A stretch of 64,000 nucleotides of DNA from Candidatus Iainarchaeum sp. (GTDB lineage Archaea; Iainarchaeota; Iainarchaeia; Iainarchaeales; JAZDDZ01), in NCBI GenBank assembly GCA_043809245.1, contig JAZDDZ010000047.1, positions 1 to 64,000 on the forward strand, written 5' to 3'. Below are positions 13,275-47,522 of the stretch, piece by piece. How positions within the stretch are numbered: the stretch's first letter is position 1; each line of letters begins with the position of its first letter. The notes beneath the pieces were generated by a model, which saw nothing but the letters and a program-made list of their open reading frames with translations, was not told the DNA's origin and searched no databases. A program made the translations under genes and the position numbers.

Positions 13275-13284
13275 TGAAAAAATA

Positions 13285-13398: not shown

Positions 13399-13445
13399 AT
13401 TTTGCACTATATTATTCTTTAAAGATTTTACTTTTTAAATACATT

Positions 13446-14126: not shown

Positions 14127-14182
14127 AAGGCAGGGTTTAAATAAACTTCTTACTTTTCTTACTTGTAATACGGGGGCTTTTT

Positions 14183-31414: not shown

Positions 31415-32125
31415 ATGCAATTAGGTAAATTGGAGTCGGATGTGCTTGAGGCGTTGAAAGGCAATGGTTTGGCGGTGTTCAGGGCAAGGGATGTTTCCCT
31501 TCTTTTGCGTTTCAGCATGGTTAAAACTTATAACCTGCTTAAATCGCTGAAAAAAAAGGGCTTGATTAAATCGCTGCAGGGCGGCGTTTATGCAGTTAAG
31601 GGAACAGACGAGCTTGCAGCCGGCGCCTACCTCAACTGGCCTTCTTATCTTAGTTTCTGGTCTGCTTTGAGTTATTATGGGTTAACCGACCAAATGCCTA
31701 AAACGGTTTTTTTTGCAAGCGCCAAGTACAAGAAAAGGATTGGAAACTGCAGGTTTGTTGTGCTTTCGAATAAAAGGTTTTTTGGCTATACAAGCGTGGG
31801 CGGCATAACCATCGCTGAAAAAGAGAAGGCAATCATTGATTCTTTGCTTTTCCCCAAATATGCCGGAGGAATGCACGAAGTGTTTAACGCAGCCAAATCA
31901 TCCATTAAAGTGCTTGATTTGAAAAAGCTTTCAAGTTATGCCTTGCGGGTTAAGAGCAGGGCCGCGGTTAGGCGACTTGGATTTATTTTAGAGGAATGCG
32001 GAATCAGGGGAAAATATTTGGATAATTTGTTAAAGCGCAAGGGAAAAGGATTTGAATTGCTTGACCCCTCGCTTGAAAGAAAAAACAATTTCAACAAAAA
32101 ATGGCTTTTGGATGTAAACTGGTGA
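31415..32125 (+). CDS. Type IV TA antitoxin, AbiEi-like
   Basis: wHTH, SYLSFWSALSYYGLTDQMP, EKEKAIID. Confidence 0.85.
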   Translation: MQLGKLESDVLEALKGNGLAVFRARDVSLLLRFSMVKTYNLLKSLKKKGLIKSLQGGVYAVKGTDELAAGAYLNWPSYLSFWSALSYYGLTDQMPKTVFFASAKYKKRIGNCRFVVLSNKRFFGYTSVGGITIAEKEKAIIDSLLFPKYAGGMHEVFNAAKSSIKVLDLKKLSSYALRVKSRAAVRRLGFILEECGIRGKYLDNLLKRKGKGFELLDPSLERKNNFNKKWLLDVNW

Positions 32126-32883
32126 ATGAAATGATTTCAAGGGAAGAACTGGAAAAGGTTAGTGCGGCAAGGAAGACAAGCCTTTACTTCGAGGAAAAAG
32201 AATACCTGCAATACGTTTTCCTTCACTCGGTTTCAAGGTTTGCCGAATCATTTGCATTCAAGGGCGGCACTTGCTTAAGAATATGCCATGGCTTTGAAAG
32301 GGCTTCAGAGGACCTTGATTTCAGCTCTTCACTAAGCATTCAAAAAACGAGGAAAATCTTCGAGAGATGCCTTAAGGACTTCGCACTGCTCAACATAGAG
32401 CAGGAGGTTTTTTCAGAAAAAGAGTTTGAAGGAAACATAAGGTTTGAAGCGCGCTTCAAAGGCCCCCTGTTCAGCGGAAACCGCCACTCAACGAATTCGC
32501 TTAAAATTGATTTCAACAAAGGCAAATCAAGGAATACTGTTGCGAAAGCAATTCCCAAGCTGTTCTCTGACATCCCTGTTTTCACAATCCAGGCATTAGC
32601 CGAAAAAGAAATCCTCGCGGAAAAAATTCGCACCTTAATCAACAGGGGGCAGGCACGCGACCTATACGACGTCTGGATGCTGCTGCAAAACAAAACACCC
32701 ATTGACACAAAGCTCCTTGAAGCAAAACTAAAAGAAGAAAACAGCAGCATATCCAAGCTAAAAATGCCCGAAAAACAGGCATACGAAAGAGACCTAAAGC
32801 CCCTTCTGAATTTTCTGCCCCCCTACAAGCAAGTCAAAGAAGAAGCGGAAAAAGAACTCAAAAAAATCAGGCCACTGCATTAA
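32101..32883 (+). CDS. Type IV TA toxin, AbiEii nucleotidyltransferase
   Basis: FKGGTCL, RASEDLDF, AEKIR, ARDLYD. Confidence 0.9.
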   Translation: MAFGCKLVNEMISREELEKVSAARKTSLYFEEKEYLQYVFLHSVSRFAESFAFKGGTCLRICHGFERASEDLDFSSSLSIQKTRKIFERCLKDFALLNIEQEVFSEKEFEGNIRFEARFKGPLFSGNRHSTNSLKIDFNKGKSRNTVAKAIPKLFSDIPVFTIQALAEKEILAEKIRTLINRGQARDLYDVWMLLQNKTPIDTKLLEAKLKEENSSISKLKMPEKQAYERDLKPLLNFLPPYKQVKEEAEKELKKIRPLH

Positions 32884-32952: not shown

Positions 32953-33384
32953 TTAACCCTTTTTTACGATTTTTTTCACCGCTTCAAGGAATCCAGTGGC
33001 AATTTTTATAGCTGAATCCGCTTCGGATTCCTGCGCTTCCGCGTTTTTACCCAAGCCGTACATGAAGTCGTGCCTTTGAAGCCTTAACGAGTTAAGTTCG
33101 TTGAGATACTTTCGCTCTATTTTATCCGAATATTTTTCTTTCAGGTAAACGTAGACCGCAAAATGGCTTCTTTCCTTGAACCCGTCCCTAAATAAAAGCG
33201 CCCTAGCCGAATGGAACATGGAAGTGTAGGCGTTTACAATCGCGTCCTCGAATATTTCGTGCTCCAATTCTTTTTCAGCCAAATCAAGCTTGTGCTCTGC
33301 CATTTCAATGGATGACAAGGATTTTTCCTTGTCGGGCTTTTCCCTTACAAGCAAGCCTTCCCTGACGCATTCCTCTACATTCAT
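32953..33384 (-). CDS. HEPN domain protein
   Basis: YTSMFHSARALL..ERSH; RHDFMY. Confidence 0.85.
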   Translation of the reverse strand: MNVEECVREGLLVREKPDKEKSLSSIEMAEHKLDLAEKELEHEIFEDAIVNAYTSMFHSARALLFRDGFKERSHFAVYVYLKEKYSDKIERKYLNELNSLRLQRHDFMYGLGKNAEAQESEADSAIKIATGFLEAVKKIVKKG

Positions 33385-33929
33385 AGTATCACGGGCCTTT
33401 CGCCGAGCAAAACAATTGAATCGTAAATAACCTTTTCATAAAACACCCTGTCTTCGGACGCCTTTTTCTTCCAATCGCCTAAAGACAGCACTGAAACATT
33501 CGCTTCCCTTCCGAGCCTGGAGAGGAAGCCGAAATCAATCTTTGCAGGCTTGTGCGCTATAACCAGCAAGTCAACATCGCTTTTCCCGTCATTCGTTCCC
33601 TTTGCAAGGCTGCCGTACAAAATTATTGCATGAATGTCCTTCAGCCTTTTTTTAATTTCCCCCACAACCCTTGCCTCTGCAAGCAGGTCAAGGTTGAATA
33701 AAACTTTCCACTGCCTGCACAAAGCGCTTTCAAGGTTCGCCTTAACCTGGTGGGTTCTGCCAATCTCCTCAAACGAAACAATTCCCTTCCGCTTCATGAA
33801 TTCCAGTGCATCCCCTGCAGAGCCTGCACTCAAACCCGACTCCAATGCAAGCCCCCTGACGGAAAACGCCTTGTTCGGCCTGGAAAGCACGAATTCAATC
33901 GCTTTAACCAAAGCATACTGTTCAAGCAT
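33381..33929 (-). CDS. HTH-fused minimal nucleotidyltransferase (MNT)
   Basis: ILYGSLAKG..SDVDLL; likely start MLEQY at 33929. Confidence 0.85.
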   Translation of the reverse strand: MLEQYALVKAIEFVLSRPNKAFSVRGLALESGLSAGSAGDALEFMKRKGIVSFEEIGRTHQVKANLESALCRQWKVLFNLDLLAEARVVGEIKKRLKDIHAIILYGSLAKGTNDGKSDVDLLVIAHKPAKIDFGFLSRLGREANVSVLSLGDWKKKASEDRVFYEKVIYDSIVLLGERPVIL

Positions 33930-34002
33930 AACAAATAATAAAAAAGACAAATGTATTTTTAAATAGAACATACTCGGGTATAAATCAATATAAAATACAT
34001 AT

Positions 34003-34153: not shown

Positions 34154-34774
34154 TTGAGGTGTACTGTTATGGTTAACCTTTCCTCTCCGAAAACTTTTTC
34201 CTTTGTTGAATTCATCTTGGAAAAGAAATCGTTCACGCAGTACTCCGCTGTGAAAGAATTGAAGCTTTCCATGCCTTTGGTGAACCAGGTCACGAATTTT
34301 CTTTTGGACAAGGGTTTTTTGTCGCATGACGGCAAAAAATATGTTTTGCGTGACGCTGCTGGGCTTGTTTCCGCGGTGCATTTGTTTCGGGACATGAGGA
34401 AAGCACTGCTTGTTGAGGTTTCCACGAGCCTTGGAAAAGAGGAGGTTGTAAAGCTATTGCCCTCTGCTGCAATTTTTTGCCTTGACAGCGCTTTGGCGCA
34501 TTACTCTAACTGGTGGCGCTCAAACAAGGCATGCGCTTACGTTACCGAAAAAGAGGCATTAGGCATTCAAAAAAAACTGTTTTACAAGAAAGGGGGCAAA
34601 ACAATTGTGCGATTGTTTTTAGAGCAGCCTTTGGTTAAAGACAAGGTGAAATTTCAAGGCAGGCAATTCACTTCAAAAATCAGGACAGTCATTGACATGG
34701 TGTGCGACAACCAAATGAATGCAGTTGAGCCTCTTTTTTCAGAGCTTTGGGGTGAAAGAATTGGAAGGCATTGA
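34154..34774 (+). CDS. wHTH protein, AbiEi-like antitoxin
   Basis: N-terminal HTH; FCLDSAL, SKIRTVID; paralog of 45390-45992. Confidence 0.65.
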   Translation: MRCTVMVNLSSPKTFSFVEFILEKKSFTQYSAVKELKLSMPLVNQVTNFLLDKGFLSHDGKKYVLRDAAGLVSAVHLFRDMRKALLVEVSTSLGKEEVVKLLPSAAIFCLDSALAHYSNWWRSNKACAYVTEKEALGIQKKLFYKKGGKTIVRLFLEQPLVKDKVKFQGRQFTSKIRTVIDMVCDNQMNAVEPLFSELWGERIGRH

Positions 34775-35447
34775 ATCAATTTACAATAAGGATGCAACTG
34801 AACTCTCCTTGTCCGAGTTAAAGCGTTTTCTTTCGTGGTGTGAATACACGCTGCATTATGCGCCAGTAATAATCGGCGGCTGGGCTGTTTACGCTTTCAC
34901 TCCAAAAATCGGCTCAATCGACATTGACATTGTATTGAAAAAGAAGGACTTCAAAAAACTTGCGGTTTTTTTCTCTGAAAACGGTTATGCGAAAAAAGAG
35001 GATGAACCGAACATTTACTTCAAGGAAGCCATGCTGCCTTCAGGCAAAACCGAAACAATGCGTTTCGACTTGATTGCATTGGAATCAAAGTATGCAATCA
35101 GCAGGGAGCCGAACGTAAGCATTCCCATAAGGCTTGTGGAAAAACATTCAAAAGAAATTTCCTTCGAAAGACAGAAAATAATTGTGCCGGAAAAAGAATT
35201 GCTGTTAATCCAGAAAGTTGCCGCATATAGGAATCGCGAGGACCTGGCCAGAACAGGGCATTTAAGGCTGGCTTTCGGCCAAAGGGAATGGAATGAAAGA
35301 AAAATAGCCAAAGACAAGGAAGACATTAAAAACCTCATAGAATCAGGCATTGACTTTGAAAAACTGGAAAAACTGCTTGAAAAAACCGGGTTCAAAAAAA
35401 TATACGAAGATGCATTAAAAGAAATCGACGCATTCAGGCAAAAATAA
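34719..35447 (+). CDS. Nucleotidyltransferase (AbiEii-like); start probably TTG 34761
   Basis: IIGGWAV, SIDIDIV, LIQKVAA, KDKEDI. Confidence 0.7.
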   Translation: MQLSLFFQSFGVKELEGIESIYNKDATELSLSELKRFLSWCEYTLHYAPVIIGGWAVYAFTPKIGSIDIDIVLKKKDFKKLAVFFSENGYAKKEDEPNIYFKEAMLPSGKTETMRFDLIALESKYAISREPNVSIPIRLVEKHSKEISFERQKIIVPEKELLLIQKVAAYRNREDLARTGHLRLAFGQREWNERKIAKDKEDIKNLIESGIDFEKLEKLLEKTGFKKIYEDALKEIDAFRQK

Positions 35448-35609: not shown

Positions 35610-36815
35610 TCAAATTTCTTGGCTTATGTAAAAGATTGGCCTGAATTTTATGTTGTTTTTTTCGGCATTCAATTTTTCCGACAGAATGAGTGCTTTTTTT
35701 GGCTTGTATTTTTCCGTGAAGCTTTGGAATGATTTTGATGCGATTGGCTTGTTTAGGCTGGATTTGATTTCAATTGGGATTATTTTTCCGTTTTTTTCCA
35801 GGACAAAGTCCACTTCGGCTTTTGATTTGGCACGCCAGTATTTCAGCTCGAATTGCTTTTTCACCAATTCTGTTGCCGCAAAGTTTTCGTATAATGCCCC
35901 TTTGTCGGCCCTGTCCTTGGCTGGCTGAAAGTTTTTAATGACCGCGTTCCTGAAGCCGTTGTCGTAAAAAAAGATTTTCGGTGCCTTTACCAGCTCTGTC
36001 CTTTTGTTTGAATAGAACGGCTGGCTTCTCTGGCAGATAAATGTTTTTTCAAGTATGTTCAGGTTTTTCAGCAAATCCTTGTAGTTCAAGGAAGTAATGC
36101 CTGACAACTCGTTATAGTTCAGAATGCCGCCTGTCTGCAGTGCGAGCGCGTGAATCAGTTTGCTGAGCTTGAAGTCCTCTGGAATGTTTAGGATTTCCTT
36201 TATTTCCTTGAGAAAATATGTGTTGTAAATGTTGCGCAAAACAAGCTCTTTTTCCTCCGAATTTTTGCTTAAAACCACCCTTGGATAGCCGCCGTACACG
36301 CAGAATTCATTAAAAAGCGGGATGATTTTCCCAATGACCGGTTCGCTCAGCCTCCCCTTAACGTAAATTTTCCCGAATAATTCGGGTTCCCTGAAGTTCA
36401 AAAATTCCTCGAAAGAGAATGGATATAGGTTAAATACAAGGATTCTGCCTACAAGATACTTTATGCCGTGAATGGACAACCCGCTTGCCGAAGAGCCCGA
36501 AACAAGGATTTTGGTTTCATGGTTATCGTAAATGAATTTCAGGTTTTTCCCGCCTTCCTTGGAGTACTGAAACTCGTCAATGAACAAATACTTGTAGGGC
36601 TTGACGTGCAGTTCAACAAACGACTTAATATCCCCGTTGAATAACTCTAAAGTCTCCCTGTCCTCGAAATCCAGGAAATGCGCTTCCTTTAATCCCGCAA
36701 AAATATGCTTTAACAGCGTGGTTTTGCCGCTCTGCCTCGGGCCAGTAACCGCAATTATCTCCCGCTTGCCCAGATAACGAAAAATCTCCCCCTCCAAAAA
36801 TCTATCTATATACAT
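35610..36815 (-). CDS. AAA+ ATPase (AAA_14) with DUF4143/PD-(D/E)xK C-terminus
   Basis: GPRQSGKTT, IDEFQ, GGYP, EVDFV..PIEIKS. Confidence 0.9.
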   Translation of the reverse strand: MYIDRFLEGEIFRYLGKREIIAVTGPRQSGKTTLLKHIFAGLKEAHFLDFEDRETLELFNGDIKSFVELHVKPYKYLFIDEFQYSKEGGKNLKFIYDNHETKILVSGSSASGLSIHGIKYLVGRILVFNLYPFSFEEFLNFREPELFGKIYVKGRLSEPVIGKIIPLFNEFCVYGGYPRVVLSKNSEEKELVLRNIYNTYFLKEIKEILNIPEDFKLSKLIHALALQTGGILNYNELSGITSLNYKDLLKNLNILEKTFICQRSQPFYSNKRTELVKAPKIFFYDNGFRNAVIKNFQPAKDRADKGALYENFAATELVKKQFELKYWRAKSKAEVDFVLEKNGKIIPIEIKSSLNKPIASKSFQSFTEKYKPKKALILSEKLNAEKNNIKFRPIFYISQEI

Positions 36816-37022
36816 TTTATCCCTGCTAAAATTTACACAATATAAATAATAGCAGGCATATATTTAAAGCTTTCTGCGCTTGTTTTCCTTGCTTTTTTTG
36901 CCTTTCAGCCGCTTTCTCCCCCCTTGCCTCTTGTTTTTCCGCGATTTTTTTCCAAGAAAGGTTTTTATATTAGGTCATCCTTTATCTATTACTTTAATTG
37001 ATTTGTTTTAAGGTGTTGTTTT

Positions 37023-37778
37023 TTGGTTGAAAAGGTTAAGACTGGCATTCAGGGCTTGGATAAGGCTTTGGAGGGCGGAATCCCCAAGCGAAACATTGTC
37101 TTGGTTTCCGGCGGAGCCGGAACAGGTAAAAGCACTTTATCCATGCAATACCTGGTTAATGGCGCGAAACTGTTCGGGGATCGAGGCCTTTACATCTCCA
37201 CTGAGCAGCGCCGAGAAGAATTGATTAAAGCGGGCATGAATTTTGGCTGGAACATTGAGGAATTAGAGCAAAAAAACCTGCTTAAGATAAAGTTTTTTGA
37301 CGTGGTCGGCGGCGACAACTGGCTGCAGAAGATTTACGACCTCTATACTGCATTCCAACCCAAACGCATTGTAGTTGACTCTTTAACGACTTTCACTGAC
37401 GCCATGCTTGTCGCTGGAATGGGCGAAGACACTGCGTTCTCCATGGTGCAAGTAGCTGAAACCGTTTCACCTGTGCCACGCACCGAGAAGATTATAGCGA
37501 AAACAACGCTGTACCATTTGATGAATAAGCTGAGATTGTTTGATTCAACTGTTATACTTACATCGGAGCTGGACGAGGGAACACAAAGTCTAAGTGCAGA
37601 TGGCGTAAGCGAGTTTATTGCGGATGGAGTAATAATATTACATTATTTGGGCGTAGGCGCGGTCGACTTTAGAAGCCTGCTCGTAAGAAAGATGAGATAT
37701 ACCAACCACAACAAGCAAACTTTGCTATACGATATTTCGCAGAAAGGAATAGAAATTAAAGAAGAACAAAATGTATAA
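37023..37778 (+). CDS. KaiC/RAD55-like single-domain RecA-fold ATPase
   Basis: TGIQGLD..GGIP, GGAGTGKS, RIVVDSL, ADGVI, KMRYT. Confidence 0.9.
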   Translation: MVEKVKTGIQGLDKALEGGIPKRNIVLVSGGAGTGKSTLSMQYLVNGAKLFGDRGLYISTEQRREELIKAGMNFGWNIEELEQKNLLKIKFFDVVGGDNWLQKIYDLYTAFQPKRIVVDSLTTFTDAMLVAGMGEDTAFSMVQVAETVSPVPRTEKIIAKTTLYHLMNKLRLFDSTVILTSELDEGTQSLSADGVSEFIADGVIILHYLGVGAVDFRSLLVRKMRYTNHNKQTLLYDISQKGIEIKEEQNV

Positions 37779-37783
37779 CATTT

Positions 37784-38461
37784 ATGCTTAAACACATTTT
37801 AGTTATTCCTGATGGCAATAGACGATACGCAAAAGAACGTAACTGTTCACTTCAGGAAATATACGACTATGCAATAATAGAACTTACAACCAAACTATTA
37901 AAATTTTTCCTAATTGAGAAAAACATCCCAGAAGTTACTATCTACGGTATTTCTTTAAACAATATCCTAAAAAGAAAAGCCGAAGAACTTGAACCAATTT
38001 TTAAGCCACAGATAAAAGCCTATAAAAAATGGTTAACTGATAATGATTTTAAGAATGCCCAAGTCGCATTTAGGTTTTTTGGGGAGATTGAAAAACTTCC
38101 TAAAAATTACAAAAAAATTATTAAAGAATTGGAAGCCGCAGCCCCAAAAAAACCAAAAAAAATGTGCAATCTTTTGGTTGGCTATGACGCAGAAGCAGAG
38201 ATAGTTAATGCTATAAATTGTGCACAAAAAAATAAAGGCAGAATATCCCAAGAAAAATTGCGTGATTTCTTACAACTAAAAACGCCAATTGATGTTGTTT
38301 TTCGCTCAGGTTATGAAAAGAGACTATCGGGAGCACCTTTAATTCAATCTAGCCAAGCAGAGCTGATATTTGCTGACTACTATTACCCCGAATTAAATAA
38401 AAAAAGAATGGAAGGAATAATAGAAGAATACAATAATAGAAAAAGGAGGCATGGCCAATGA
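37784..38461 (+). CDS. Divergent cis-prenyltransferase (UppS fold)
   Basis: HILVIPDGNRRYA, RSGYEKRLSG, AELIF..YPE. Confidence 0.8.
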   Translation: MLKHILVIPDGNRRYAKERNCSLQEIYDYAIIELTTKLLKFFLIEKNIPEVTIYGISLNNILKRKAEELEPIFKPQIKAYKKWLTDNDFKNAQVAFRFFGEIEKLPKNYKKIIKELEAAAPKKPKKMCNLLVGYDAEAEIVNAINCAQKNKGRISQEKLRDFLQLKTPIDVVFRSGYEKRLSGAPLIQSSQAELIFADYYYPELNKKRMEGIIEEYNNRKRRHGQ

Positions 38462-39021
38462 TAGACTTATTCCAGAAATTACTAATGATGCAACAAATAA
38501 AGTTCGAAGAAGGCAATATTAGGTTATTCGGTCGAAGAATGGTTCTTTCTCCTGCAGAGATGCCAATCGCGATGACCGACTATATGTTAAATCATCCACA
38601 AGCGATTCCCGAAATATATGAAAAAATTAGGGTTAATATTGAGACTGGTTGGGCAGAAGCAGTACATGATCTTTATAAATTTGGAAGGCGAAATTACATT
38701 GACACTATGAAAGACATAGGAACGTTAAGTGGGTGGGGAAATCATCAATTTCTAACCTATGATGCAGAAAAATTAGAAGGTCTTGTCAGAACACCTAATT
38801 CTCCTGTGGGTGAATATTATAAAAATAAAGTAAAAGAGCCAGTAGACCATATTTTTAGGGGGTTAGCTGCCGGTGTTGGAAGCGCAATACTAAAAAAAGA
38901 GATGGATTGGATAGAGACAAAATGTATTGGAAAAGGAGATCCTTATTGTGAAATGCTTTTTAAGTTGCGAGAAAATATTACTTCTGAAGAAAGAAAAAAA
39001 TATATAAATCAACTTCCTTAA
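38458..39021 (+). CDS. V4R (4-vinyl reductase) ligand-binding domain protein
   Basis: GRRMVL, SGWG, HIFRGLAAG, ETKCIGKGDPYCE. Confidence 0.85.
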   Translation: MIDLFQKLLMMQQIKFEEGNIRLFGRRMVLSPAEMPIAMTDYMLNHPQAIPEIYEKIRVNIETGWAEAVHDLYKFGRRNYIDTMKDIGTLSGWGNHQFLTYDAEKLEGLVRTPNSPVGEYYKNKVKEPVDHIFRGLAAGVGSAILKKEMDWIETKCIGKGDPYCEMLFKLRENITSEERKKYINQLP

Positions 39022-39032
39022 CGGTAGTTATT

Positions 39033-39887
39033 ATGAGATTAAGTTTTAGTGATTTGCTAAGCATTTTTGTACCCCATTATATATTGTCTGCCGTTATAAC
39101 GACTTTTTTTGTTTTTTTCCTATCCTCAGGAAGCGTAGTTGAGCAAAATTTGATTTTTGGCATTATTTTATATGCCACTTGCATTGTTGCATTTAACGCA
39201 TATAACATGGTTTTTGATGAGGACATCGACAGCATAAATAAGCCGCTTAGACCAATCCCATCCAAAAAAATTTCGAAGGGTAAAATATTATCATTGAGTA
39301 TATCCCTCTTTTTATTGAGTATTTTTTTGGCAATATTGGTGAACTGGCAGTTGTCGATTTTATTCTTCGCGTTTTTTATTGAAGCTATAATTTATTCAAC
39401 ACCCCCTCTTCGTTTAAGGAAAATTTTATTTTTCCATAACCTAAACGCCACTTTAATTTTTGGGCTAATCCCTATTTTTATAAGCCGAATTGTGACTGGG
39501 CTTATATTGCCGCTGGAATTCTCGTTCTATCTCATTAGTTTAATTTTTGTTACAGCAACTGTTAAAGACTACGAAGATATTAGTGGCGAAAAGAAATTTA
39601 AAATAAAAACAATCCCTAATTATTTTGGAATTGATATTTCAAATAAATTTATTTTATTTGGCTATTTCTTTCTGCACTTCTTTATGGCGCTTTTTTTTAT
39701 TTTTATTAAATTTAGCAGTGGTCTTTTATTTGCGGCTATTTGCGGCATTATATTTTCGTTAACAATTTATTCAAAGTTAGTAAACTTTGAGAATTCTACC
39801 GAAACGAAAATCCACTCTCCGCTAGTTAATTTTGTTTTATTTTTTACCTATTTAGTTCAGCTAATTTTTATAATAGTACCCCGATAA
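39033..39887 (+). CDS. UbiA family membrane prenyltransferase
   Basis: NMVFDEDIDSINKPLRPIPS, YSTPPLRL, KDYEDISGE; multi-TM. Confidence 0.9.
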   Translation: MRLSFSDLLSIFVPHYILSAVITTFFVFFLSSGSVVEQNLIFGIILYATCIVAFNAYNMVFDEDIDSINKPLRPIPSKKISKGKILSLSISLFLLSIFLAILVNWQLSILFFAFFIEAIIYSTPPLRLRKILFFHNLNATLIFGLIPIFISRIVTGLILPLEFSFYLISLIFVTATVKDYEDISGEKKFKIKTIPNYFGIDISNKFILFGYFFLHFFMALFFIFIKFSSGLLFAAICGIIFSLTIYSKLVNFENSTETKIHSPLVNFVLFFTYLVQLIFIIVPR

Positions 39888-39891
39888 ATCG

Positions 39892-40965
39892 CTAATAAAA
39901 CAATTTTTTCAAGCTATATTTTTTTCGCCAATTGTCTATTTCAAGGCGTATTTTTAACTTAGATACTAGCTGGTCTAAAGTTATGGGAATTTTGTTGTAT
40001 TCACTGACATCAATTTTATCTGAAAAAATTAGTTTCTCGAAATCCTCATCCGCCATATGCTCGTATATTATCCGTCTCTTTAACGCTGCCAACAACTCTG
40101 ATTCGATAGCACCTTTCCAAATTGTATCATAATTTGTCTTGTTAATAATAGATTGAGCTGCTGCGATTGCACTTTCAAGGCAATAATTGACTCCAAATCC
40201 CCTTGCTGCATCTACAAAACCCGCTGCTGATCCAATAAACTTAATTTTATTTATTTCCGCAGTCTTTGGAACATTAGCATAAGTAAAACCGCCGAATTTG
40301 TCTGCAGAACTACTATTTTCTATGATTTTGGATATTATCATATTCTCCTTCAAAAACCTTTCAAAGAGCAAAGGCAAGTTTGCATTTAAGTTAAAACTTA
40401 CCTCGCCAATGCTGGCTTCATGCTTTCCGTAAGGTATTAACCCTAAATATCCGTGGGGCGCAAATTCATTATTCAGAAAAAATAAAATTGTATCTTTTTG
40501 AACGGTCACATCCTTAAAATGAACACCGTAATACGCAATATTTCTGAAAATAGAACTTGAAGAAACAATCTCTGCATTTTTCAAGTTTTTATTTTCTTTA
40601 AATTGAAATTTAACCCCTTCATCTTCTGCCTGTTCAAAAAGCTGGGAATCAAAAGAAGTCAATGCCTCTCCGCGCCGAAATATGTAGAACAGTGGTTCTT
40701 TTGAATTAATTTCCATTTTCCTGCCTGACGGCGAATATTTTGTTATTTTATATATTGGTTTAGTATAGTTTAAATCCAAACCCTCTTTTCTAAATTTCTG
40801 GAGCTGTCCATAATCCGGACCATAATTCCTTATAGCTTGAATATTTTCGCCTGTGTTGAGCCCTATTGCGCGGTTCTTTTCAAAGACAGAGGCCCTTTCG
40901 CCGCCCTTTGCCAAGATTATTGCTGCTGAAAGCCCCGCAATGCCCGCCCCAATTATTTTTTGCAT
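39892..40965 (-). CDS. FAD-dependent oxidoreductase, geranylgeranyl-reductase-like
   Basis: IIGAGIAGLSAA, APHGY, GSAAGFVD..GFGV. Confidence 0.8.
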   Translation of the reverse strand: MQKIIGAGIAGLSAAIILAKGGERASVFEKNRAIGLNTGENIQAIRNYGPDYGQLQKFRKEGLDLNYTKPIYKITKYSPSGRKMEINSKEPLFYIFRRGEALTSFDSQLFEQAEDEGVKFQFKENKNLKNAEIVSSSSIFRNIAYYGVHFKDVTVQKDTILFFLNNEFAPHGYLGLIPYGKHEASIGEVSFNLNANLPLLFERFLKENMIISKIIENSSSADKFGGFTYANVPKTAEINKIKFIGSAAGFVDAARGFGVNYCLESAIAAAQSIINKTNYDTIWKGAIESELLAALKRRIIYEHMADEDFEKLIFSDKIDVSEYNKIPITLDQLVSKLKIRLEIDNWRKKYSLKKLFY

Positions 40966-41067
40966 GTATAGTAATAAGCGCTTTTCATTTTTAAACTTTA
41001 GTAGATTATTATTTTAACTGAAAACCACCAAAAATGGATAAAAAGCTTATTTAACGCTAAAGCCGAC

Positions 41068-41910
41068 TTATTTTCTTCGTTTATTCTCCTTATACACCTT
41101 TTCAGCCTCTTCCCTCAACTTATCCGCCAGCGACGCGTTTTTCGTGATTAGCACGTTTATTTCCGTCTTTTTCGCGCATAATTCGAACAATTTTGGAAGA
41201 TCCACTTCTTTTTGTGCTTTGGTTTCTTCGCACATTTTTTCAAATTCTTGGTAGTATTTTGACTCAAAGTACACTTGGCAGATAAAATCCCCCTGTACAA
41301 ATGTGTCAATTGTGGTGGAAAAGTTAACGCCTGTTAGGTTCTTTTTGCCCATTCCCGTGAGGTATGACGCAAAATATCTGTCCAAAAAGGTATTTTCTTT
41401 TGCAAAACCGTAATGCATATGATCTGTGAAAACTTTTTTCAAATTCTCATGCTCTGTTTCGCTTATGCCTGTTATCGGATAATGGTGTTTCCAGAAACAA
41501 ATGCAATCCTTGTTTTTTTCATTCGGGAATTTTAGAAAATACTCGTTTATCAGGAATTTTCCTAGTTCAATCATGGAATTGAACGTGAGGTGAATTGATC
41601 CGCTGAAATTTTCCGGATCCATTTTGTTGTTTGCGTAAACCTCACTTAAGGTATTGCTGAACTGTCTCACTTTTGAAATCCAATCCTTGTTCAATGACAA
41701 GCCTTTGCCGTTCTTTGTTATAATGCCTTCTTCCTGAAGCAGCGTTATAATCTTATGTGCCGCCTGGTAAGACATTTCACAGCTATACTCCCTTTGCAGC
41801 GTCTTGTATATCTCGTTTGGAGTTAAAGGCCATTTTCTGGACAGAATTGAAACAATTTTGTCTTTAGTGGAAGTGGAGTTCAGTTCGGGGATAGTGATGC
41901 TTATCGTCAT
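41068..41910 (-). CDS. Winged-helix regulator paralog 1 (wHTH plus unknown C-terminal domain)
   Basis: STKDKIVSILSRKWPLT..SYQAAHK..LNKDW. Confidence 0.7.
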   Translation of the reverse strand: MTISITIPELNSTSTKDKIVSILSRKWPLTPNEIYKTLQREYSCEMSYQAAHKIITLLQEEGIITKNGKGLSLNKDWISKVRQFSNTLSEVYANNKMDPENFSGSIHLTFNSMIELGKFLINEYFLKFPNEKNKDCICFWKHHYPITGISETEHENLKKVFTDHMHYGFAKENTFLDRYFASYLTGMGKKNLTGVNFSTTIDTFVQGDFICQVYFESKYYQEFEKMCEETKAQKEVDLPKLFELCAKKTEINVLITKNASLADKLREEAEKVYKENKRRK

Positions 41911-42326
41911 TTTCTCTCGCCTCCGTAAGCAGCAATTAACTGGTTTCTTATGAAGTCAGCCATTTCTTTGTCTTTTTCGAAGGTAACTGTCATGTGAATT
42001 TTTCTTGATAGCGTCTTGTTTCTGGCGAAATCCATGAAAAGGCTGCCTGCAAGGTTTTTCGAGAAAACCTCCATTTTTTTAGCCCACTCGCGGTTCAAAA
42101 AAATCTTTTTGTCATCGGATTTAAGCAGAATTCCTTCGCCAAGCATTTGGTTCACGATTTTGTGAAGCGCCTGATAGGACAGCTGCCTTTCACCGTTTTC
42201 CTTCAAAAAAGAATGAATTTCGTTAACCGAAGCGCCTTTGTCAACGGAAATGCAGGACAAAATAAACGAACGAGTGGAAGAGCCAGCAATCAGATTGCCG
42301 TTGAATGAGGTATTTGGCAGATTCAT
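41907..42326 (-). CDS. Winged-helix regulator paralog 2 (short)
   Basis: SYQALHK..EGIL..LNREW. Confidence 0.65.
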   Translation of the reverse strand: MNLPNTSFNGNLIAGSSTRSFILSCISVDKGASVNEIHSFLKENGERQLSYQALHKIVNQMLGEGILLKSDDKKIFLNREWAKKMEVFSKNLAGSLFMDFARNKTLSRKIHMTVTFEKDKEMADFIRNQLIAAYGGERK

Positions 42327-43174
42327 TTTCCCACCCCCTCAAAGTATTTTCTTGCTTGTGCGTGGATTTGTTCTGCGGCGATTGGGTTGCGGTTAATTGT
42401 TAAAATGACTTTTGTTTTAAGCGCGCAGACGCTTTTGTATAATTCAATTATGTCCATTTCTTCGATTTTTTCAATTCCGTGAAGGGAGCCATGCAATGCT
42501 TCTTTTAGGTTGTCGCCGAAATAAGCAGTAACTATGCTGTCGCCTGGAACGATTATGTCACAATGTTTTTGTACGGGAATGCCCAGTTTTGGCTTCCATC
42601 CAATTTTTTGATAATAGCCTGCAATCCATTGGTCTGCTTTTTCAGTGCTTGAGCAAATCATGTGGTGATCATATTTTTCCCCCATGCGCAAAAGCTTTTC
42701 AAGGTATTTTTTCCCTAAAATCATTGGAAACCAGTTCCAATAATGATTTAAAAAAGAGGATCCAATACGCGTCTTATTTGAATCAAAGAAATCATTATCC
42801 AATCCGTCGATGACGAATTCGTACATTGCCCAAAGCGTGCTGAATTCCACTTGGGTCGTGGTTAAATCGATTTTTTGCCCAAAGCCTGAGCCGGAATAGC
42901 TGTTTTGGAGTTTTTCCGAGTAATCCTGCATTTTGTTGATCCATTCCTTGGAGATTTTCAGCTGCGAATTGATTTCTTCTAGAATGCCCGCGTCAAGCAG
43001 TTCTTTGGCTGTTTTGTGGACCGCTTGATAGGACACGTCAAGGGAATAGTTTTTCTTTAAAGCCGAATGAATTTCTTTAACCGATAAGGGCCATTGGCTG
43101 GCAAGCACTTCAATTATAAGTTCCTTGGATGACTTTGAACGCGAATTAAGGTTGGGAAGAAAAAGGTCAGTCAT
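42323..43174 (-). CDS. Winged-helix regulator paralog 3
   Basis: WPLSVKEIH..SYQAVHK..ISKEW; HYW motif. Confidence 0.7.
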   Translation of the reverse strand: MTDLFLPNLNSRSKSSKELIIEVLASQWPLSVKEIHSALKKNYSLDVSYQAVHKTAKELLDAGILEEINSQLKISKEWINKMQDYSEKLQNSYSGSGFGQKIDLTTTQVEFSTLWAMYEFVIDGLDNDFFDSNKTRIGSSFLNHYWNWFPMILGKKYLEKLLRMGEKYDHHMICSSTEKADQWIAGYYQKIGWKPKLGIPVQKHCDIIVPGDSIVTAYFGDNLKEALHGSLHGIEKIEEMDIIELYKSVCALKTKVILTINRNPIAAEQIHAQARKYFEGVGK

Positions 43175-44034
43175 TGCTTTCGCCCCCCTTCAAAGTGTTT
43201 TTGGACGTTTTCTTTTATTTGTTTTGCGAGTGCGGGGTTTTTGGCTATGATTATGGGGATTTGGGTTTTTTTGAGGAAGATGTTGTCGAATAAGTGTTTG
43301 ACGTCCAGGTCTTGGATGTTTTTGGTTTTGGAGAAAAAGCCGTTGATTTCTTTCATGAGGCTTTTCGGGTAAAAGGCTTGAAGCACTAAGTCGCCCATTG
43401 CAATGATGTCGTTGTCTCCGTAGTTGACTCCGCTTTTGCTGGAAAAGCCTTGTTTGTTCCAGAATTCAGAGCACCATTTGTCAATGACATTGCTGCCCTT
43501 CACTATGCTGTAGATTTTGGCTGTTTTGGGAATAAGCTTTAATTTTTCGTATTCTTTCATTGAAAGGAAAAGCGGCAGCCAGTAGTGCTGCCACTGCCAG
43601 GCAATTGCTTCCCCGTCCCCGGGATAATTTGTGACAAAAAAATCCAAAATGAACTTGTCTGCTTCATGCATTGATTCAAAGGAAAACGAGGACTCGCTAA
43701 AAGAAGGCGAAGCCTTTTTATCAAAGTAAGCCGAGTGAATGGAGTGGCTTGCGTTTTTGAGCTCTTCAATCCACTTCCTGTTCAGCGAATAATTTTTTTC
43801 GCTTTTTTCAAGCACTCCATCCAATACAAGCTGTGAAATGATTTTATGCGTTGCCTGGTAAGAAGAAGAAAAACCATTGCCCTTTGCCAAAGCGTTATGG
43901 ATTTTGCGCGCTGAAAGAGGCCATTCATTGCTCAGCAAGGAAATAACCTTATCCCTTGTAGAGGAAGCCTTTCCATTCAGTTGTGGAACAATAAAACCCG
44001 ACGCCAAAAAAAACCACACCTGAAATATATACAT
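43171..44034 (-). CDS. Winged-helix regulator paralog 4
   Basis: WPLSARKIH..SYQATHK..LNRKW; HYW motif. Confidence 0.7.
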   Translation of the reverse strand: MYIFQVWFFLASGFIVPQLNGKASSTRDKVISLLSNEWPLSARKIHNALAKGNGFSSSYQATHKIISQLVLDGVLEKSEKNYSLNRKWIEELKNASHSIHSAYFDKKASPSFSESSFSFESMHEADKFILDFFVTNYPGDGEAIAWQWQHYWLPLFLSMKEYEKLKLIPKTAKIYSIVKGSNVIDKWCSEFWNKQGFSSKSGVNYGDNDIIAMGDLVLQAFYPKSLMKEINGFFSKTKNIQDLDVKHLFDNIFLKKTQIPIIIAKNPALAKQIKENVQKHFEGGRKQ

Positions 44035-44138
44035 AAACGGAAAAGAATAAAAGCAGCTTTCCGCGAAAAAAACAATGAAAAAACGGCTTTAAATGGGTTT
44101 AATTGGCTAATAAAGCGCTTTTAGGGCTTTTTCGGAAA

Positions 44139-44154
44139 TCAACTTTTTGGTTGA
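44139..44154. promoter_or_regulatory. TCAAC-N6-GTTGA inverted repeat upstream of the wHTH operon
   Basis: TCAACTTTTTGGTTGA. Confidence 0.5.
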
Positions 44155-44178
44155 TTTTTTCCTGGGCGAAGCGTTGAT

Positions 44179-44487
44179 TTATTTTGCCAGGTTTTTCAGC
44201 TCTTCGTTTAGGTCTTCAATTGAATACTGTGATTTGAAGCCTTTTTTAACCAGGTATTGCTCTAGTTCCCAGACCGTTGAATTTGACAGCTCCGCTGCCA
44301 TGCTTATTGTTATTTTTCCCGCCATATAGTTTTCTGCTGCCTTTTTTTTGACATAATCGCCGTAACCTTCCTCTAACAGCAGGCGGATTATCGTTGACCT
44401 GTCAAAGTGCTCTGCTTTGCTTAGCCGGTCTATTTTTTCCAAAAGCCCTTTGTCAAGCCTTATCCCTATTGCCTTTGCTTTCTCCAT
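44179..44487 (-). CDS. UPF0175-like RHH/HTH antitoxin
   Basis: IGIRLD..DRSTIIR; GKITISMAAEL. Confidence 0.75.
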   Translation of the reverse strand: MEKAKAIGIRLDKGLLEKIDRLSKAEHFDRSTIIRLLLEEGYGDYVKKKAAENYMAGKITISMAAELSNSTVWELEQYLVKKGFKSQYSIEDLNEELKNLAK

Positions 44488-44989
44488 TTTTTTCCACCTC
44501 CAGCAGTATTTTGTCAAGCACTTGGCTGCCGAACCAGCCAATCTTCCTCAGCTTGTTCAGCGCCTCAGCGGTTTTGCCCGAATCAATTGCCTTGACCTTG
44601 AAAAGCGCCAGGATAATTGAAGGGGTTCCAATCAAGTTAAGCCCCAAAACCGCCTTTTTGCTTCTTACATTGTCGTCATCCGAAACCAATAAGCCGGCAT
44701 TCTCCTGCCAGTAAAGCGCAACTGCCTCCGCCTCGCCCCCGAAAATGTTGAAGTTATTCGCATTTTTAACTAGCTGTTTTTTTGACACCCCTTTAACCTT
44801 AATCCATTTCTCTTTAACCAGGCGCTCAATCAGAAAAGAGTCGGCATAGCCCTTTTCTTTTCCCGTACTCACTGCTTCGGCAAAAACAAGTTCAGGGATA
44901 AGTACCTCCTTGAAATGGCGGCAGCTCTTCTCAAGCAGGGAAATCTTCGCCAAATGAATCAAAACCATTGCGTCATTTACAACAAGCAC
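44453..44989 (-). CDS. PIN domain protein (DUF3368-like); start probably GTG 44989
   Basis: VVNDAMVLIHLAKI, GEAEAVAL, SDD. Confidence 0.8.
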   Translation of the reverse strand: MLVVNDAMVLIHLAKISLLEKSCRHFKEVLIPELVFAEAVSTGKEKGYADSFLIERLVKEKWIKVKGVSKKQLVKNANNFNIFGGEAEAVALYWQENAGLLVSDDDNVRSKKAVLGLNLIGTPSIILALFKVKAIDSGKTAEALNKLRKIGWFGSQVLDKILLEVEKNGESKGNRDKA

Positions 44990-45318
44990 AGTCTCTGTAA
45001 TACAATGTGCACAATGTATATATATTCTTTTCGTTTGGTGTTTAAAGGATAGGCGCCAACCTTTGCCTATAGCTTTTGGGAACCGCATGCGCGATTCTTT
45101 CTTTTTGAAGAACAATTTTGGTTTAAATCTTTCTTTTAAAAGAAAGATATGCTTGCAAGGCATAATGCCTGCCGTGTATTCAAATTCAATGCTGCTTTTG
45201 GGCTTTTTTATCTGTGACTCTAAAAGCTCTTTTTCTTTCAATGACTGCAATAAATTATTTATAAAGGTTTCAATAAACGTTGAAACCTATAAAAACAGGC
45301 GCAAATCCCTCCAGCTAA

Positions 45319-45358
45319 AGTATCACTTTTTAGTGATACTATCACTATTTAGTGATAC
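45319..45358. promoter_or_regulatory. Tandem TATCAC/GTGATA palindromes, probable autoregulatory operator
   Basis: AGTATCACTTTTTAGTGATACTATCACTATTTAGTGATAC before ATG 45390. Confidence 0.65.
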
Positions 45359-45389
45359 CTTTAAAAGCTTGTTTGCGCATGGTTTTTGT

Positions 45390-45992
45390 ATGAAGCTGAC
45401 TTCAAAGAAGACGTATAAGGTCATTTATTTTTTGCTTGGGAACAGGGGTTTTACGCAGCTGCAGGCTTCAAGGGAGTTGGGCGTTTCTTTCGGGCTCGTT
45501 AACCGTGTCGTTCAGTGGCTTGTAAGCAAAAGGTTCGTTGAGAAACAGAAAAACGGCTATTATTTGACTGACCCTTCGGGTTTGGCTGCATTGTTCGCGT
45601 TTAACCGTGACATGAATTCTTTGCTGGCGGAAAAAATTCTTTTGGCTCTGCCTAAAGCAGGTGCTTTGGAAAGGATTCCGAAAAACTGCGTTTTGTGCCT
45701 TGACTCTGCTTTGGAGAATTATTCCGGCTATTATCGCTCTAACCGCGTGTGCGTTTACGCTGAAGGCAATAAAGAGTTGAAGGAAATCGGAAAGGCGTTT
45801 CAGGGGGAGCCGAAGGGAAACACCGAGTTATGGGTTTTCAAGCCAGACCTTGAACCTGAAACCGTTAAATTAAAGGGAAGGCTGGTGGTCTCCAAGCTTA
45901 GGACTTTGATTGACTTGGTTTGCGACAATAAAACATTTTATGCAAAAGACCTTTTCAAAGAACTGTGGGGGGTTGAATTGCTTGAATCATGA
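45390..45992 (+). CDS. wHTH protein, AbiEi-like antitoxin (paralog of 34154-34774)
   Basis: FTQ..EL..S..LVN, LCLDSAL, SKLRTLIDLVCDN. Confidence 0.65.
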   Translation: MKLTSKKTYKVIYFLLGNRGFTQLQASRELGVSFGLVNRVVQWLVSKRFVEKQKNGYYLTDPSGLAALFAFNRDMNSLLAEKILLALPKAGALERIPKNCVLCLDSALENYSGYYRSNRVCVYAEGNKELKEIGKAFQGEPKGNTELWVFKPDLEPETVKLKGRLVVSKLRTLIDLVCDNKTFYAKDLFKELWGVELLES

Positions 45993-46344: not shown

Positions 46345-47202
46345 CCGCTATAGGCTTTCCTTGTCTCCCCGCTGAATTTGTTCAGCCCATCCCATTGCCT
46401 GCAATTCACTTAAACCCTATTATTATTGAAGAGTTGAGGTTTCTGTACGCCACTTCGGTTTTAAAGCCCGCGGCGTTCAGGAATTTGAGGTTATTGTTGA
46501 GTGAGGCGTATTGGTGGTGCTTGCCGTCAATTGAGAGTATTTTGTCCCTGAATTCTTTTCCGTTTTCTTTTTCCATGTGGCCAGCCCATTTTGAATGGAG
46601 GTACTCATTCAATTCTTTTGAATCGCTTGCCATTACATCCGCTAAAATGAATGCCCCGCCCTGTTTTAATGAATCGTAAACTTTTTTGTAAGCCTTTTGC
46701 TTGTCTGCATCGGAGAGGTGATGGTAAACAATGGAGCTTACCGCCAAATCAAACTCGTTTTTCCTGTCAAGGTTAATCACGTCATCGCAGACAGCCTTGA
46801 AGTCAAATCCCTTGAATCTTTTGTTTGCGCATTCCGCCATTTTATCCGAAACATCAAATGCCAATACGCTTGCCTTTGGCTTGGCTTCCAGGGCTGCCTT
46901 GCTGGTGTTCCCTGTTCCAGCCCCCAAATCCAATATTCTCGGCGACTCTGAATGCCCGCAGAACAGGTTAACCATTTCCCTGATTGTTGAAACCATTTCA
47001 GCATAGGATATAACGGTTCCATGCACGAATGACTCGTATTCTTCCACTCTTTTGTTGAAAAGTTCCTTTGTTTTTTCCTTGTTCTCATTAGCCATGTCAT
47101 TCCCCCCAAAAACTTTTTTTTAAAATTTTTTAGAACGTTCAAGCAATTGGTTTGCCGGTTCACCGCCATAGGCTTTTCTTGTTTCCCCGCTGAATTTGTC
47201 CA
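46345..47202 (+). repeat. 40-bp direct repeats (46345-46384, 47163-47202) flanking the methyltransferase
   Basis: CCGCYATAGGCTTTYCTTGTYTCCCCGCTGAATTTGTYCA, 36/40 identical. Confidence 0.75.
46406..47095 (-). CDS. Class I SAM-dependent methyltransferase (CmoA-like)
   Basis: ILDLGAGTG, DVSDKM, VYHHL, LKQGG. Confidence 0.9.
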   Translation of the reverse strand: MANENKEKTKELFNKRVEEYESFVHGTVISYAEMVSTIREMVNLFCGHSESPRILDLGAGTGNTSKAALEAKPKASVLAFDVSDKMAECANKRFKGFDFKAVCDDVINLDRKNEFDLAVSSIVYHHLSDADKQKAYKKVYDSLKQGGAFILADVMASDSKELNEYLHSKWAGHMEKENGKEFRDKILSIDGKHHQYASLNNNLKFLNAAGFKTEVAYRNLNSSIIIGFK

Positions 47203-47488
47203 ATCTTTCCAGCCACTCCGCGTCAAGCAGATAAAGCGACTGCTCTTTGCAAAGGATTCCCTCGCGCAAAAGTTTTCGCGCGGCCTTGTGGATGCCTTGA
47301 AAGCTCACGTTCACAGCATGCCTGCGGTTGATGCGGTAATGCATGTCCCTCAAAGACAAAGGCCATTCGCGCGCAAGAATCAACACAATCAAATCCGCAA
47401 CTGTTTTCTTTCCCGCGCTGACCTGCGGCAGTTTCAGCGTTGAATCAGCTGTTGCTCCGTTTAATAGTTCGCCGGAAAAACTCGCCAT
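47120..47488 (-). CDS. Winged-helix regulator paralog 5 (wHTH only)
   Basis: EWPLSLRDMH..SFQGIHK..LDAEW. Confidence 0.7.
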   Translation of the reverse strand: MASFSGELLNGATADSTLKLPQVSAGKKTVADLIVLILAREWPLSLRDMHYRINRRHAVNVSFQGIHKAARKLLREGILCKEQSLYLLDAEWLERLDKFSGETRKAYGGEPANQLLERSKKF

Positions 47489-47522
47489 ACAATAAATTCG
47501 GTTTAGCGAATTAATATGGGTT

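Follow-up and report, generated by a model that had tools for sequence, protein, structure and literature searches.

A KaiC-V4R-prenyltransferase gene module recurring in DPANN archaea: a candidate isoprenoid-tailoring pathway with ligand sensing

Introduction

In the photosynthesis gene clusters of purple bacteria the genes bchJ, bchG and bchP encode, side by side, a V4R protein, a UbiA-type bacteriochlorophyll synthase and a reductase of the geranylgeranyl reductase (GGR) type. The same three families occur together in the cluster examined here, which lies in a 64,000 nt stretch of archaeal DNA (the window; positions 1 to 64,000 of contig JAZDDZ010000047.1, here C47, assembly GCA_043809245.1, Candidatus Iainarchaeum sp.) and encodes a KaiC-like ATPase, a cis-prenyltransferase (cis-PT), a stand-alone V4R protein, a UbiA-superfamily prenyltransferase and a GGR-like flavoprotein. 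Judged by sequence comparison, the cluster represents one copy of a module that is conserved among the tiny DPANN archaea and, as far as we know, has not been described before; in it, KaiC and V4R are combined with an extra, non-housekeeping prenyltransferase (UbiA and/or cis-PT). ChlG/BchG models are among the top matches of the module UbiA proteins and a chlorophyll synthase (9sau) is their best solved relative, but the module loci lack tetrapyrrole genes, possess KaiC and TrmBL2-like regulators in addition, and carry a cis-PT or a trans-isoprenyl diphosphate synthase (trans-IPPS).

Other described systems resemble different parts of the module. In the aromatic sensors XylR, DmpR, MopR and PoxR (PDB 5fru, 6iy8, 5kbe) a V4R-type domain gates an AAA+ ATPase. 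The module also has a ligand-binding domain beside an ATPase, and its V4R protein matches the sensory domain over its whole length, with aligned D/E/C/C columns; however, this protein is separate rather than fused, the ATPase is of the RecA/KaiC type and not a sigma-54 AAA+ ATPase, and the first column of the putative metal site is Asp rather than Cys. For the single-domain KaiC-like ATPases of archaea a role as hubs of signal transduction has been proposed (Makarova, Galperin and Koonin 2017, as cited in PMC5847659). The module KaiC likewise consists of one RecA/KaiC domain whose Walker motifs are intact, and is encoded beside a small-ligand-binding input protein and winged-helix regulators; it differs in being tied to prenyltransferase genes. 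Archaeol synthesis pairs a UbiA-superfamily membrane enzyme, digeranylgeranylglyceryl phosphate (DGGGP) synthase, with a GGR-superfamily flavoprotein, and DGGGP synthase (DGGGPS) models are the best NCBIfam matches of the module UbiAs, yet the equivalog cut-offs are all failed widely, the UbiA clade is separate, the flavoprotein lacks a Cys column and ∼40 residues, and canonical copies coexist with the module. The haloarchaeal bacterioruberin genes lyeJ-crtD-cruF set a UbiA enzyme beside a flavoprotein that is automatically annotated as GGR.

DPANN archaea are thought to be largely dependent on their hosts for lipids. To our knowledge, the regulation of isoprenoid and membrane-lipid synthesis in archaea is almost unknown, and we know of no ligands or targets assigned to many of the archaeal KaiC-like ATPases and stand-alone V4R proteins.

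Results

Gene content of the cluster

The genes of the cluster and a candidate promoter are as follows.

36960..36972, plus strand: putative archaeal promoter, an A/T-rich TATA-like element (TTTTTATATT) ∼50 nt 5' of the KaiC start, read from the sequence.
37023..37778, plus strand: single-domain KaiC-like ATPase of the RecA superfamily, 251 amino acids (aa), TTG start; KaiC family by PF06745 (177.9 bits, cut-off 26.6).
37784..38461, plus strand: module-type cis-PT, 225 aa, a paralogue of housekeeping UppS; superfamily member by PF01255 (124.5 bits, cut-off 27, profile positions 1-219 of 219).
38458..39021, plus strand: stand-alone V4R protein, 187 aa, with a hydrophobic/aromatic-ligand-binding fold; V4R domain by PF02830 (33.1 bits, cut-off 31).
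39033..39887, plus strand: module-type UbiA-superfamily intramembrane prenyltransferase, 284 aa; superfamily member by PF01040 (110.0 bits, cut-off 34.2).
39892..40965, minus strand: GGR-superfamily-like FAD flavoprotein, 357 aa, co-directional with four regulator genes upstream of it.

A previous reading of this DNA from its sequence alone (the sequence-only reading) had described a packed kaiC/cis-PT/V4R/UbiA group facing a convergent GGR-like gene, an arrangement borne out by the open reading frame (ORF) map and by Pfam. KaiC and cis-PT are separated by 5 nt, cis-PT and V4R overlap by 4 nt, V4R and UbiA are separated by 11 nt, and the ends of the convergent UbiA and flavoprotein genes lie 4 nt apart.

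Conservation of the module

The genome, which is 1.48 Mb in 55 contigs and 91.8% complete, is that of a DPANN archaeon, as the sequence-only reading had supposed, from an order with more than 30 families and genomes of 0.5-1.5 Mb. It harbours a paralogous module on contig C42, comprising KaiC, V4R, a split CrtI/amine-oxidase-like gene, UbiA (minus strand) and a GGR-like gene (plus strand); identity with the window was 40% for KaiC, 27% for V4R, 30% for UbiA and 39% for the GGR-like protein. The CrtI/amine-oxidase-like gene beside UbiA (L028 8056-9424) is divided into ORFs of 225 and 188 aa ∼125 nt apart and may be frameshifted or decaying.

A search for related loci with the single window flavoprotein yielded none, while a profile of the family alignment yielded 17 in species-representative genomes. 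By title these belong to Iainarchaeum, Aenigmatarchaeota and Micrarchaeota/Norongarragalinales, apart from two short contigs that had been binned with bacteria. These 17 and 11 V4R-anchored metagenome loci, with 5 duplicates, gave 25 distinct loci including the window and C42; the V4R-anchored search used six close V4R proteins, the full V4R alignment being too diverse, and so reaches close relatives only. KaiC was present in 22 of the 25; the 13-kb locus L045 lacked it, as did two short contigs, L051 and L052. V4R, or in its place a tandem V4R-like protein, was found in 23, and UbiA, or a UbiA-like fusion or split gene, in 20; in place of UbiA, L041 had a HAD-like gene, L048 a cis-PT and L076 the contig edge. 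A trans-polyprenyl synthase was found at six distinct loci and a cis-PT at two. Four 'type-B' loci (L038, L042, L044 and L047) carried, in place of V4R, a 375-378-aa protein whose C-terminal half weakly matched the V4R profile (hhalign probability 55%) and whose N-terminal half held a V4R-type Cys motif, and UbiA was replaced there by a 634-639-aa protein in which a weak UbiA signal (22 bits) was fused to an S-adenosylmethionine (SAM) methyltransferase. Apart from these fusions, the add-ons at other loci included genes that were CruF-like (L073), CrtI-like (C42), radical SAM (L045) and terpene-synthase-like (L052).

The second, less biased sample was drawn from 215 genomes of the phylum, of which the 30 best-scoring V4R loci were inspected over ±1.5 kb. 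KaiC was found at 28 and UbiA and/or cis-PT at 19, or 20 with C42, where UbiA lies just outside the stretch; 22 of the 30 were in genomes without a strong flavoprotein match. L112 showed KaiC-cisPT-V4R, the order of the window, and L102 and L104 had cis-PT next to UbiA. As a control, 20 lower-scoring V4R loci were inspected over ±3.5 kb. KaiC was adjacent to all four module-type V4Rs among them, three of which also had UbiA, whereas for the 16 V4Rs of a second, 'C8-type' group KaiC was directly adjacent in one case and anywhere in the stretch in five. In a second phylum (that of an Aenigmatarchaeota-titled locus) V4R was found in 44 of 151 sampled genomes, and the 25 best V4R loci included KaiC at 16, UbiA at 11, a GGR-family flavoprotein at five and cis-PT at two.

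The association of KaiC and V4R with prenyl enzymes, on whose conservation the sequence-only reading had depended, is strongly conserved, and the KaiC-V4R linkage itself was found at 22/25 distinct loci and at 28/30 and 16/25 V4R loci in two phyla. From the three samples and the control, the core is KaiC, a module-type V4R and a prenyltransferase, with the flavoprotein as an accessory. No published description of a KaiC-V4R-prenyltransferase module was found in the literature; the paper of Makarova et al. (2017) and its supplements lay outside the search and may list such neighbourhoods.

Two further observations concern individual loci. At L053, a locus with an Iainarchaeum title (3537-14540), 11 kb contain five genes for KaiC-like proteins, two of the GGR family, one each for UbiA and trans-IPPS, and both a V4R gene and a tandem V4R-like one. 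The flavoprotein contigs L051 and L052 were binned as Sulfurovum and Saccharibacteria, the latter with a weakly terpene-synthase-like gene and an adjoining seven-transmembrane protein; misbinning, or else a transfer, is likely.

Module prenyltransferases and housekeeping copies

On the housekeeping UppS model (TIGR00055, cut-off 109.55) the window cis-PT scored 94.5 bits and thus fell short, whereas a copy on contig C28 passed with 191.7; the housekeeping C28 copy likewise gave 206 bits against 124 for the window copy. The window cis-PT was 41% identical to the module cis-PT of L048 and 29% identical to the C28 copy of its own genome. Four of five further genomes with a module-linked cis-PT carry a 206-214-bit copy elsewhere; in the remaining genome, at 86% completeness, the copy seen is partial. 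In the cis-PT tree, seven module-linked copies, so labelled from gene context and not from sequence, were split from five other copies by a 100/99 branch.

The motifs N-x3-D-x3-D and K-D-x-x-D were present in all 11 module UbiA proteins. Against DGGGPS-type equivalogs, with cut-offs of 269-353, the window UbiA scored 56-81 bits (69.0 against 296 for NF009521 and 56.4 against 353 for NF009522), although models of this type were the best NCBIfam matches of the module UbiAs and a DGGGPS structure (6m31) was among their three solved relatives. Five module-bearing genomes had two or three UbiA matches each. Four non-module UbiAs reached 164-213 bits on DGGGPS-type models compared with 52-93 for six module UbiAs, all of them below the curated cut-offs (for NF009521, the four DGGGPS-like copies scored 176-213 against 296). 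In the UbiA tree, 10 of the 11 module proteins fell together (95/92), while the DGGGPS-like copies and a third group each had a clade of their own; the L053 protein, on a very long branch, was the only module UbiA outside.

Both trees thus placed the module enzymes apart from housekeeping copies, as the sequence-only reading required. The related expectation, that they would not be the only copies in the genome, held for cis-PT (C28) and for GGR (C25, C28) but failed for UbiA, of which there are only two genes, both in modules. With canonical cis-PT and GGR elsewhere, and the module cis-PT and UbiA in separate clades, the sequence comparisons support the conclusion that the module enzymes are not housekeeping lipid enzymes.

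The UbiA result bears on a different explanation, that the module UbiA is the DGGGP synthase of this lineage and the GGR-like protein its lipid saturase, with KaiC and V4R sitting in or regulating the bulk pathway. A tblastn search of this 91.8% complete genome with the DGGGPS-like proteins of relatives found only the two module UbiAs (43-45 bits), although the ether-lipid pathway is otherwise present (HMG-CoA reductase, trans-polyprenyl synthase, GGGPS, CarS, two GGRs and UppS). It is because DGGGPS is missing that this explanation retains some weight. We nevertheless regard it as improbable: four other module-bearing genomes have a separate, higher-scoring UbiA in a clade of its own, the module occurs sporadically (only 12 of 215 genomes gave a strong GGR-like match), two canonical GGRs accompany it in this genome, partner enzymes such as methyltransferase fusions, CruF-like, CrtI-like and radical SAM proteins are foreign to archaeol synthesis, and the genome is only 91.8% complete.

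As a separate observation, the only trans-polyprenyl synthase of the genome is encoded within an 824-aa ORF (C8:30336-32810). Between the N- and C-terminal parts of its Pfam model lie ∼460 aa, a spacing suggestive of an intein or some other large insertion.

The GGR-like flavoprotein

The flavoprotein is an FAD oxidoreductase of the Rossmann type (NAD_binding_8, 30.3 bits, cut-off 21.9), with G6, G8 and G11 of GxGxxG invariant in 17 sequences. It scored below the GGR family cut-offs (73.1 against 158.8 for TIGR02032, GG-red-SF, and 23.8 against 27 for GGR_cat), and for this reason 'GGR-like' is the right wording. The two canonical GGRs of the genome, on C25 and C28, gave 258 and 208 bits against 36-37 per half for the window protein. 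By alignment with these two, GxGxxG was kept, the column of the conserved Cys, which we take to lie next to the flavin in canonical GGRs, was E/D/H/N in the module-family sequences shown, ∼40 aa were deleted and the YxWxFP-type motif was altered to GY-x-x-x-x-P-x-GK; the replaced Cys and the altered motif are seen in the alignment only. Among solved structures the Thermoplasma GGR (3oz2, 4e-13) was the best relative, ahead of flavin halogenases and the Sulfolobus GGR, and the ESM Atlas contained look-alike clusters of uncharacterized flavoproteins (TM 0.84-0.89).

The idea, drawn from the 17 matches, that the family is extremely rare was corrected by an exhaustive profile search, which returned 316 cluster representatives at E <=1e-30, ∼11 of them full-length at >=398 bits. 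Sampled relatives had generic names only; the named taxa were Nanoarchaeia/'Ca. Haiyanarchaeum', Parvarchaeota and Altiarchaeota. Within the 215 phylum genomes a strong flavoprotein match (>=180 bits) was found in 12, compared with V4R in 126, and three further matches of 77-80 bits in 406-415-aa frames were ordinary GGRs. The GGR-like gene, which the sequence-only reading had counted as part of the system, is hence an accessory in a subset of loci and not core.

The pairing of UbiA with such a flavoprotein also raises the possibility of carotenoid-type or other terpenoid tailoring, prompted by the haloarchaeal LyeJ-CrtD-CruF parallel (PMC9258230, PMC11364659). UbiA would then resemble LyeJ, the lycopene elongase of haloarchaea, and extend the end of an isoprenoid chain by C5 units, and desaturases or saturases of the flavoprotein kind would act together with hydratases as they do when bacterioruberin is made; either role of KaiC and V4R considered below could be combined with it. 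A CruF-type protein (PF04240, 71 bits) does stand beside UbiA at L073, in the usual position of the GGR-like gene, and the split CrtI/amine-oxidase-like gene is next to UbiA on C42. However, each of these occurs at a single locus, no phytoene synthase was seen at any locus, a word-seeded search turned up no lycopene elongase by name among the relatives of the module UbiA, and the GGR-like protein matched CrtD/CrtI models only in the Rossmann motif. We consider it very improbable.

The V4R protein

The V4R protein gave a predicted model of pLDDT 87.8, whose full-length Foldseek matches were the phenol-binding sensory domains of PoxR, DmpR and MopR (E 3e-10, TM ∼0.75); Bet3/TRAPP subunits and MJ1460, an archaeal V4R protein, came next. 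At the sequence level, the profile of the family matched MopR (1.5e-8), MJ1460 and PoxR. The columns D130, E153, C156 and C164 were invariant and aligned with C/E/C/C of MopR, which are presumably its zinc ligands; the first position is Asp where MopR has Cys. The protein models as a ligand sensor of the PoxR/MopR type.

Stand-alone V4R proteins are prokaryotic relatives of Bet3, the lipid-binding TRAPP subunit. PMC10933270 reports Zn sites in PoxR and in an Asgard TRAPPC3-like protein, concludes a ligand-binding role and places palmitate in the cavity of TRAPPC3/C6. Podar et al. (2008; PMC2253512) give hydrophobic ligands as the presumed binding partners of V4R domains, with signalling in cis or in trans; the words KaiC, ATPase and operon do not occur in that text.

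The match of the fold to Bet3 also favours an explanation based on substrate handling rather than sensing, in which V4R would be a carrier or chaperone for the prenyl donor, acceptor or product, handing it over between cis-PT or IPPS, the membrane UbiA enzyme and the flavoprotein, while KaiC would power loading or membrane extraction. The V4R gene overlaps or abuts a prenyltransferase gene in the window (the 4-nt overlap with cis-PT) and at L045, L046 and L048, loci whose KaiC gene is missing or lies on the opposite strand, and V4R is often duplicated or tandem-fused (L041, L076, L077 and the type-B loci); palmitate in the TRAPPC3/C6 cavity (PMC10933270, as above) points in the same direction. 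Against this, the best structural matches of the V4R protein are sensor domains and not carriers, TrmBL2-like regulators recur at the loci, and no precedent was found in the literature consulted for a KaiC-family ATPase moving lipids. A functionally comparable arrangement is known from ubiquinone synthesis, with the lipid-binding UbiJ and the ATPase UbiB/Coq8, and likewise from BchJ beside BchG/BchP. On balance we regard a carrier role as the leading alternative, though an unlikely one.

Other V4R genes were also observed. The third V4R of this genome (C8; L030 5100-5982) belongs to the widespread C8-type group (also L129-L144), whose members have a ∼104-aa protein as partner at 11 of the 16 loci sampled; modules of the second phylum contain this small protein as well. 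A canonical TrmB-family regulator lies ∼0.5 kb from the C8-type V4R of this genome. Genome G017, of the same order, has 11 V4R matches, several in tandem on its contigs C59 and C81.

The KaiC-like ATPase

In 17 module KaiCs the Walker A residues G30, G33, T34, G35 and K36 and the Walker B residue D119 were invariant. The window protein is not a circadian double-domain KaiC, having one domain in 251 aa and scores of 132.3 against a cut-off of 408 (NF006799) and 99.9 against 546 (TIGR02655). In the tree it fell into a clade (95/97) with six other module KaiCs of the Iainarchaeota type, and the C42 KaiC grouped with L049/L050.

The regulator array and the methyltransferase

The flavoprotein gene follows four co-directional, overlapping regulator genes on the minus strand (41068-44034), and a fifth, short member lies farther out.

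41068..41910, minus strand: TrmBL2-like regulator paralogue 1, 280 aa; model pLDDT 86.3.
41907..42326, minus strand: short regulator-family paralogue 2, 139 aa; clusters with the family in an all-versus-all BLAST and phmmer map.
42323..43174, minus strand: TrmBL2-like regulator paralogue 3, 283 aa; clusters with the family.
43171..44034, minus strand: TrmBL2-like regulator paralogue 4, 287 aa; clusters with the family.
47121..47489, minus strand: fifth, short regulator-family member, set apart from the block by toxin-antitoxin cassettes; clusters with the family.

The predicted regulator model combines a winged helix (MecI/ArsR, Z ∼10) with a C-terminal PLD/Nuc/Zucchini-like domain (Z 9.4-9.7, 132-143 residues), which is the architecture of TrmB. 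Its top Foldseek match was TrmBL2 (5bpd, 4.9e-9), at a global TM of 0.32-0.37 that is low because the domains are oriented differently. TrmB and TrmBL2 (PDB 5bpd, 3qph) share this combination of domains, but the module regulators differ in standing next to the module in tandem, as many as four in a row. None of the four window copies had a Pfam match, TrmB (PF01978) included, at E <=0.01, and for 17 regulator members TrmB was not among the 25 most-matched of 44 families at E <=1, where weak winged-helix matches were found. The 'regulator array' of the sequence-only reading is real and recurrent, then, and TrmBL2-like, being present at 11 of the 25 distinct loci.

In the same reading a SAM methyltransferase could complete the circuit. 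The candidate (46406-47095) was rejected as part of the module, as it shares only 33-35 bits of SAM-motif similarity with the methyltransferases of G004 and of the type-B loci, and is unrelated to those of other loci beyond the SAM-binding motif.

Base composition and neighbouring genes

The block had also been noted as more AT-rich than its flanks, which was confirmed: GC was 0.336 in 37784-40965 compared with 0.444 for the genome, below 99.8% of 1333 genome-wide windows of 3.3 kb. Sliding GC was 0.28-0.37 over ∼37500-41000 and 0.40-0.47 in the flanks; the KaiC gene, at 0.447, is normal for the genome. Recent transfer of the window copy alone was entertained as an explanation and is weakened because the C42 module is AT-rich as well (GC 0.30-0.40).

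A scan for promoters and terminators of the bacterial type stayed at the level of chance, with 19 promoter sites (19.7 expected) and 7 terminator sites (6.9 expected), and no operator-like repeat common to the intergenic regions 36816-37022, 40966-41067 and 44035-44178 was found.

Directly upstream of the KaiC operon, and divergent from it, is an AAA_14/DUF4143 ATPase gene (35610-36815, minus strand). Toxin-antitoxin-type cassettes surround the module and the regulator block: AbiEi/AbiEii at 31415-32883, HEPN and nucleotidyltransferase at 32953-33971, and RHH/UPF0175 at 44179-44541. A two-gene cassette is present on both sides of the block; its first genes (34154-34774 and 45063-45992) show 38% identity, and its second genes (34719-35447 and 45910-46329) match at both ends, the middle being absent from the second copy. 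Farther out, two giant ORFs on the plus strand (22035-30402), one of 1535 aa with a subtilase domain and Laminin_G_3 repeats and one of 1294 aa without a Pfam match, are likely surface proteins.

Discussion

The interpretation we favour, tentatively and at a little under an even chance, is a specialized isoprenoid-lipid pathway with built-in ligand sensing, in which V4R sets KaiC and KaiC in turn feeds the TrmBL2-like regulators. For the substrate, the product, the V4R-KaiC contact and the regulatory relay we infer the following course. The module cis-PT, or a nearby trans-IPPS, would supply a polyprenyl diphosphate, and the UbiA enzyme would move the prenyl chain onto an acceptor in the membrane. 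The flavoprotein would then reduce or otherwise redox-tailor the chain, with other add-ons also tailoring the product. V4R would bind this product, which is hydrophobic, or an intermediate on the way to it. Since an ATPase is gated by this fold in PoxR/DmpR/MopR, V4R might analogously set the ATPase activity of KaiC. The state of KaiC would be relayed to the adjacent TrmBL2-like regulators, so that the pathway would be feedback-controlled. The sequence-only reading, which put forward a dedicated prenylated signal or metabolite, is partly supported: the enzymes are non-housekeeping, they are linked to KaiC and V4R at many loci, and the regulator array recurs; a diffusible signal of the quorum- or host-sensing kind was not supported.

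Several results weigh against this interpretation. The regulator family is found at under half of the loci (11/25). V4R is coupled to a prenyltransferase gene rather than to KaiC in the window and at L045, L046 and L048, and L045 has no KaiC in 13 kb; a role as substrate carrier fits this as well as that of a sensor. The module KaiCs do not form one clade: the module label needs four changes on the tree, with the Aenigmatarchaeota and Micrarchaeota copies falling elsewhere, which points either to repeated assembly of the association or to exchange of the KaiC gene. Finally, and as the main point against a purely specialized pathway, because the only two UbiA genes of the genome are module copies (window and C42), the module UbiA may also perform DGGGPS work and bulk lipid synthesis here, or DGGGPS may be located in the unassembled ∼8%.

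A narrower proposal, possible but doubtful, is that KaiC and V4R form a lipid-gated ATPase switch, or else an ATP-driven device for lipid hand-off, dedicated to prenyl transfer. If true, a branch of the archaeal KaiC 'hub' ATPases would thereby gain its first concrete function, and so would the stand-alone V4R proteins.

If the module UbiA has replaced DGGGP synthase in this organism, membrane-lipid assembly itself may be under the control of KaiC and V4R. The module provides a testable system, in which a sensor candidate, an ATPase, enzymes and regulators are all defined, and it recurs across DPANN phyla. A dedicated and apparently controlled isoprenoid-tailoring pathway bears on how DPANN archaea build and remodel their membranes and surfaces.

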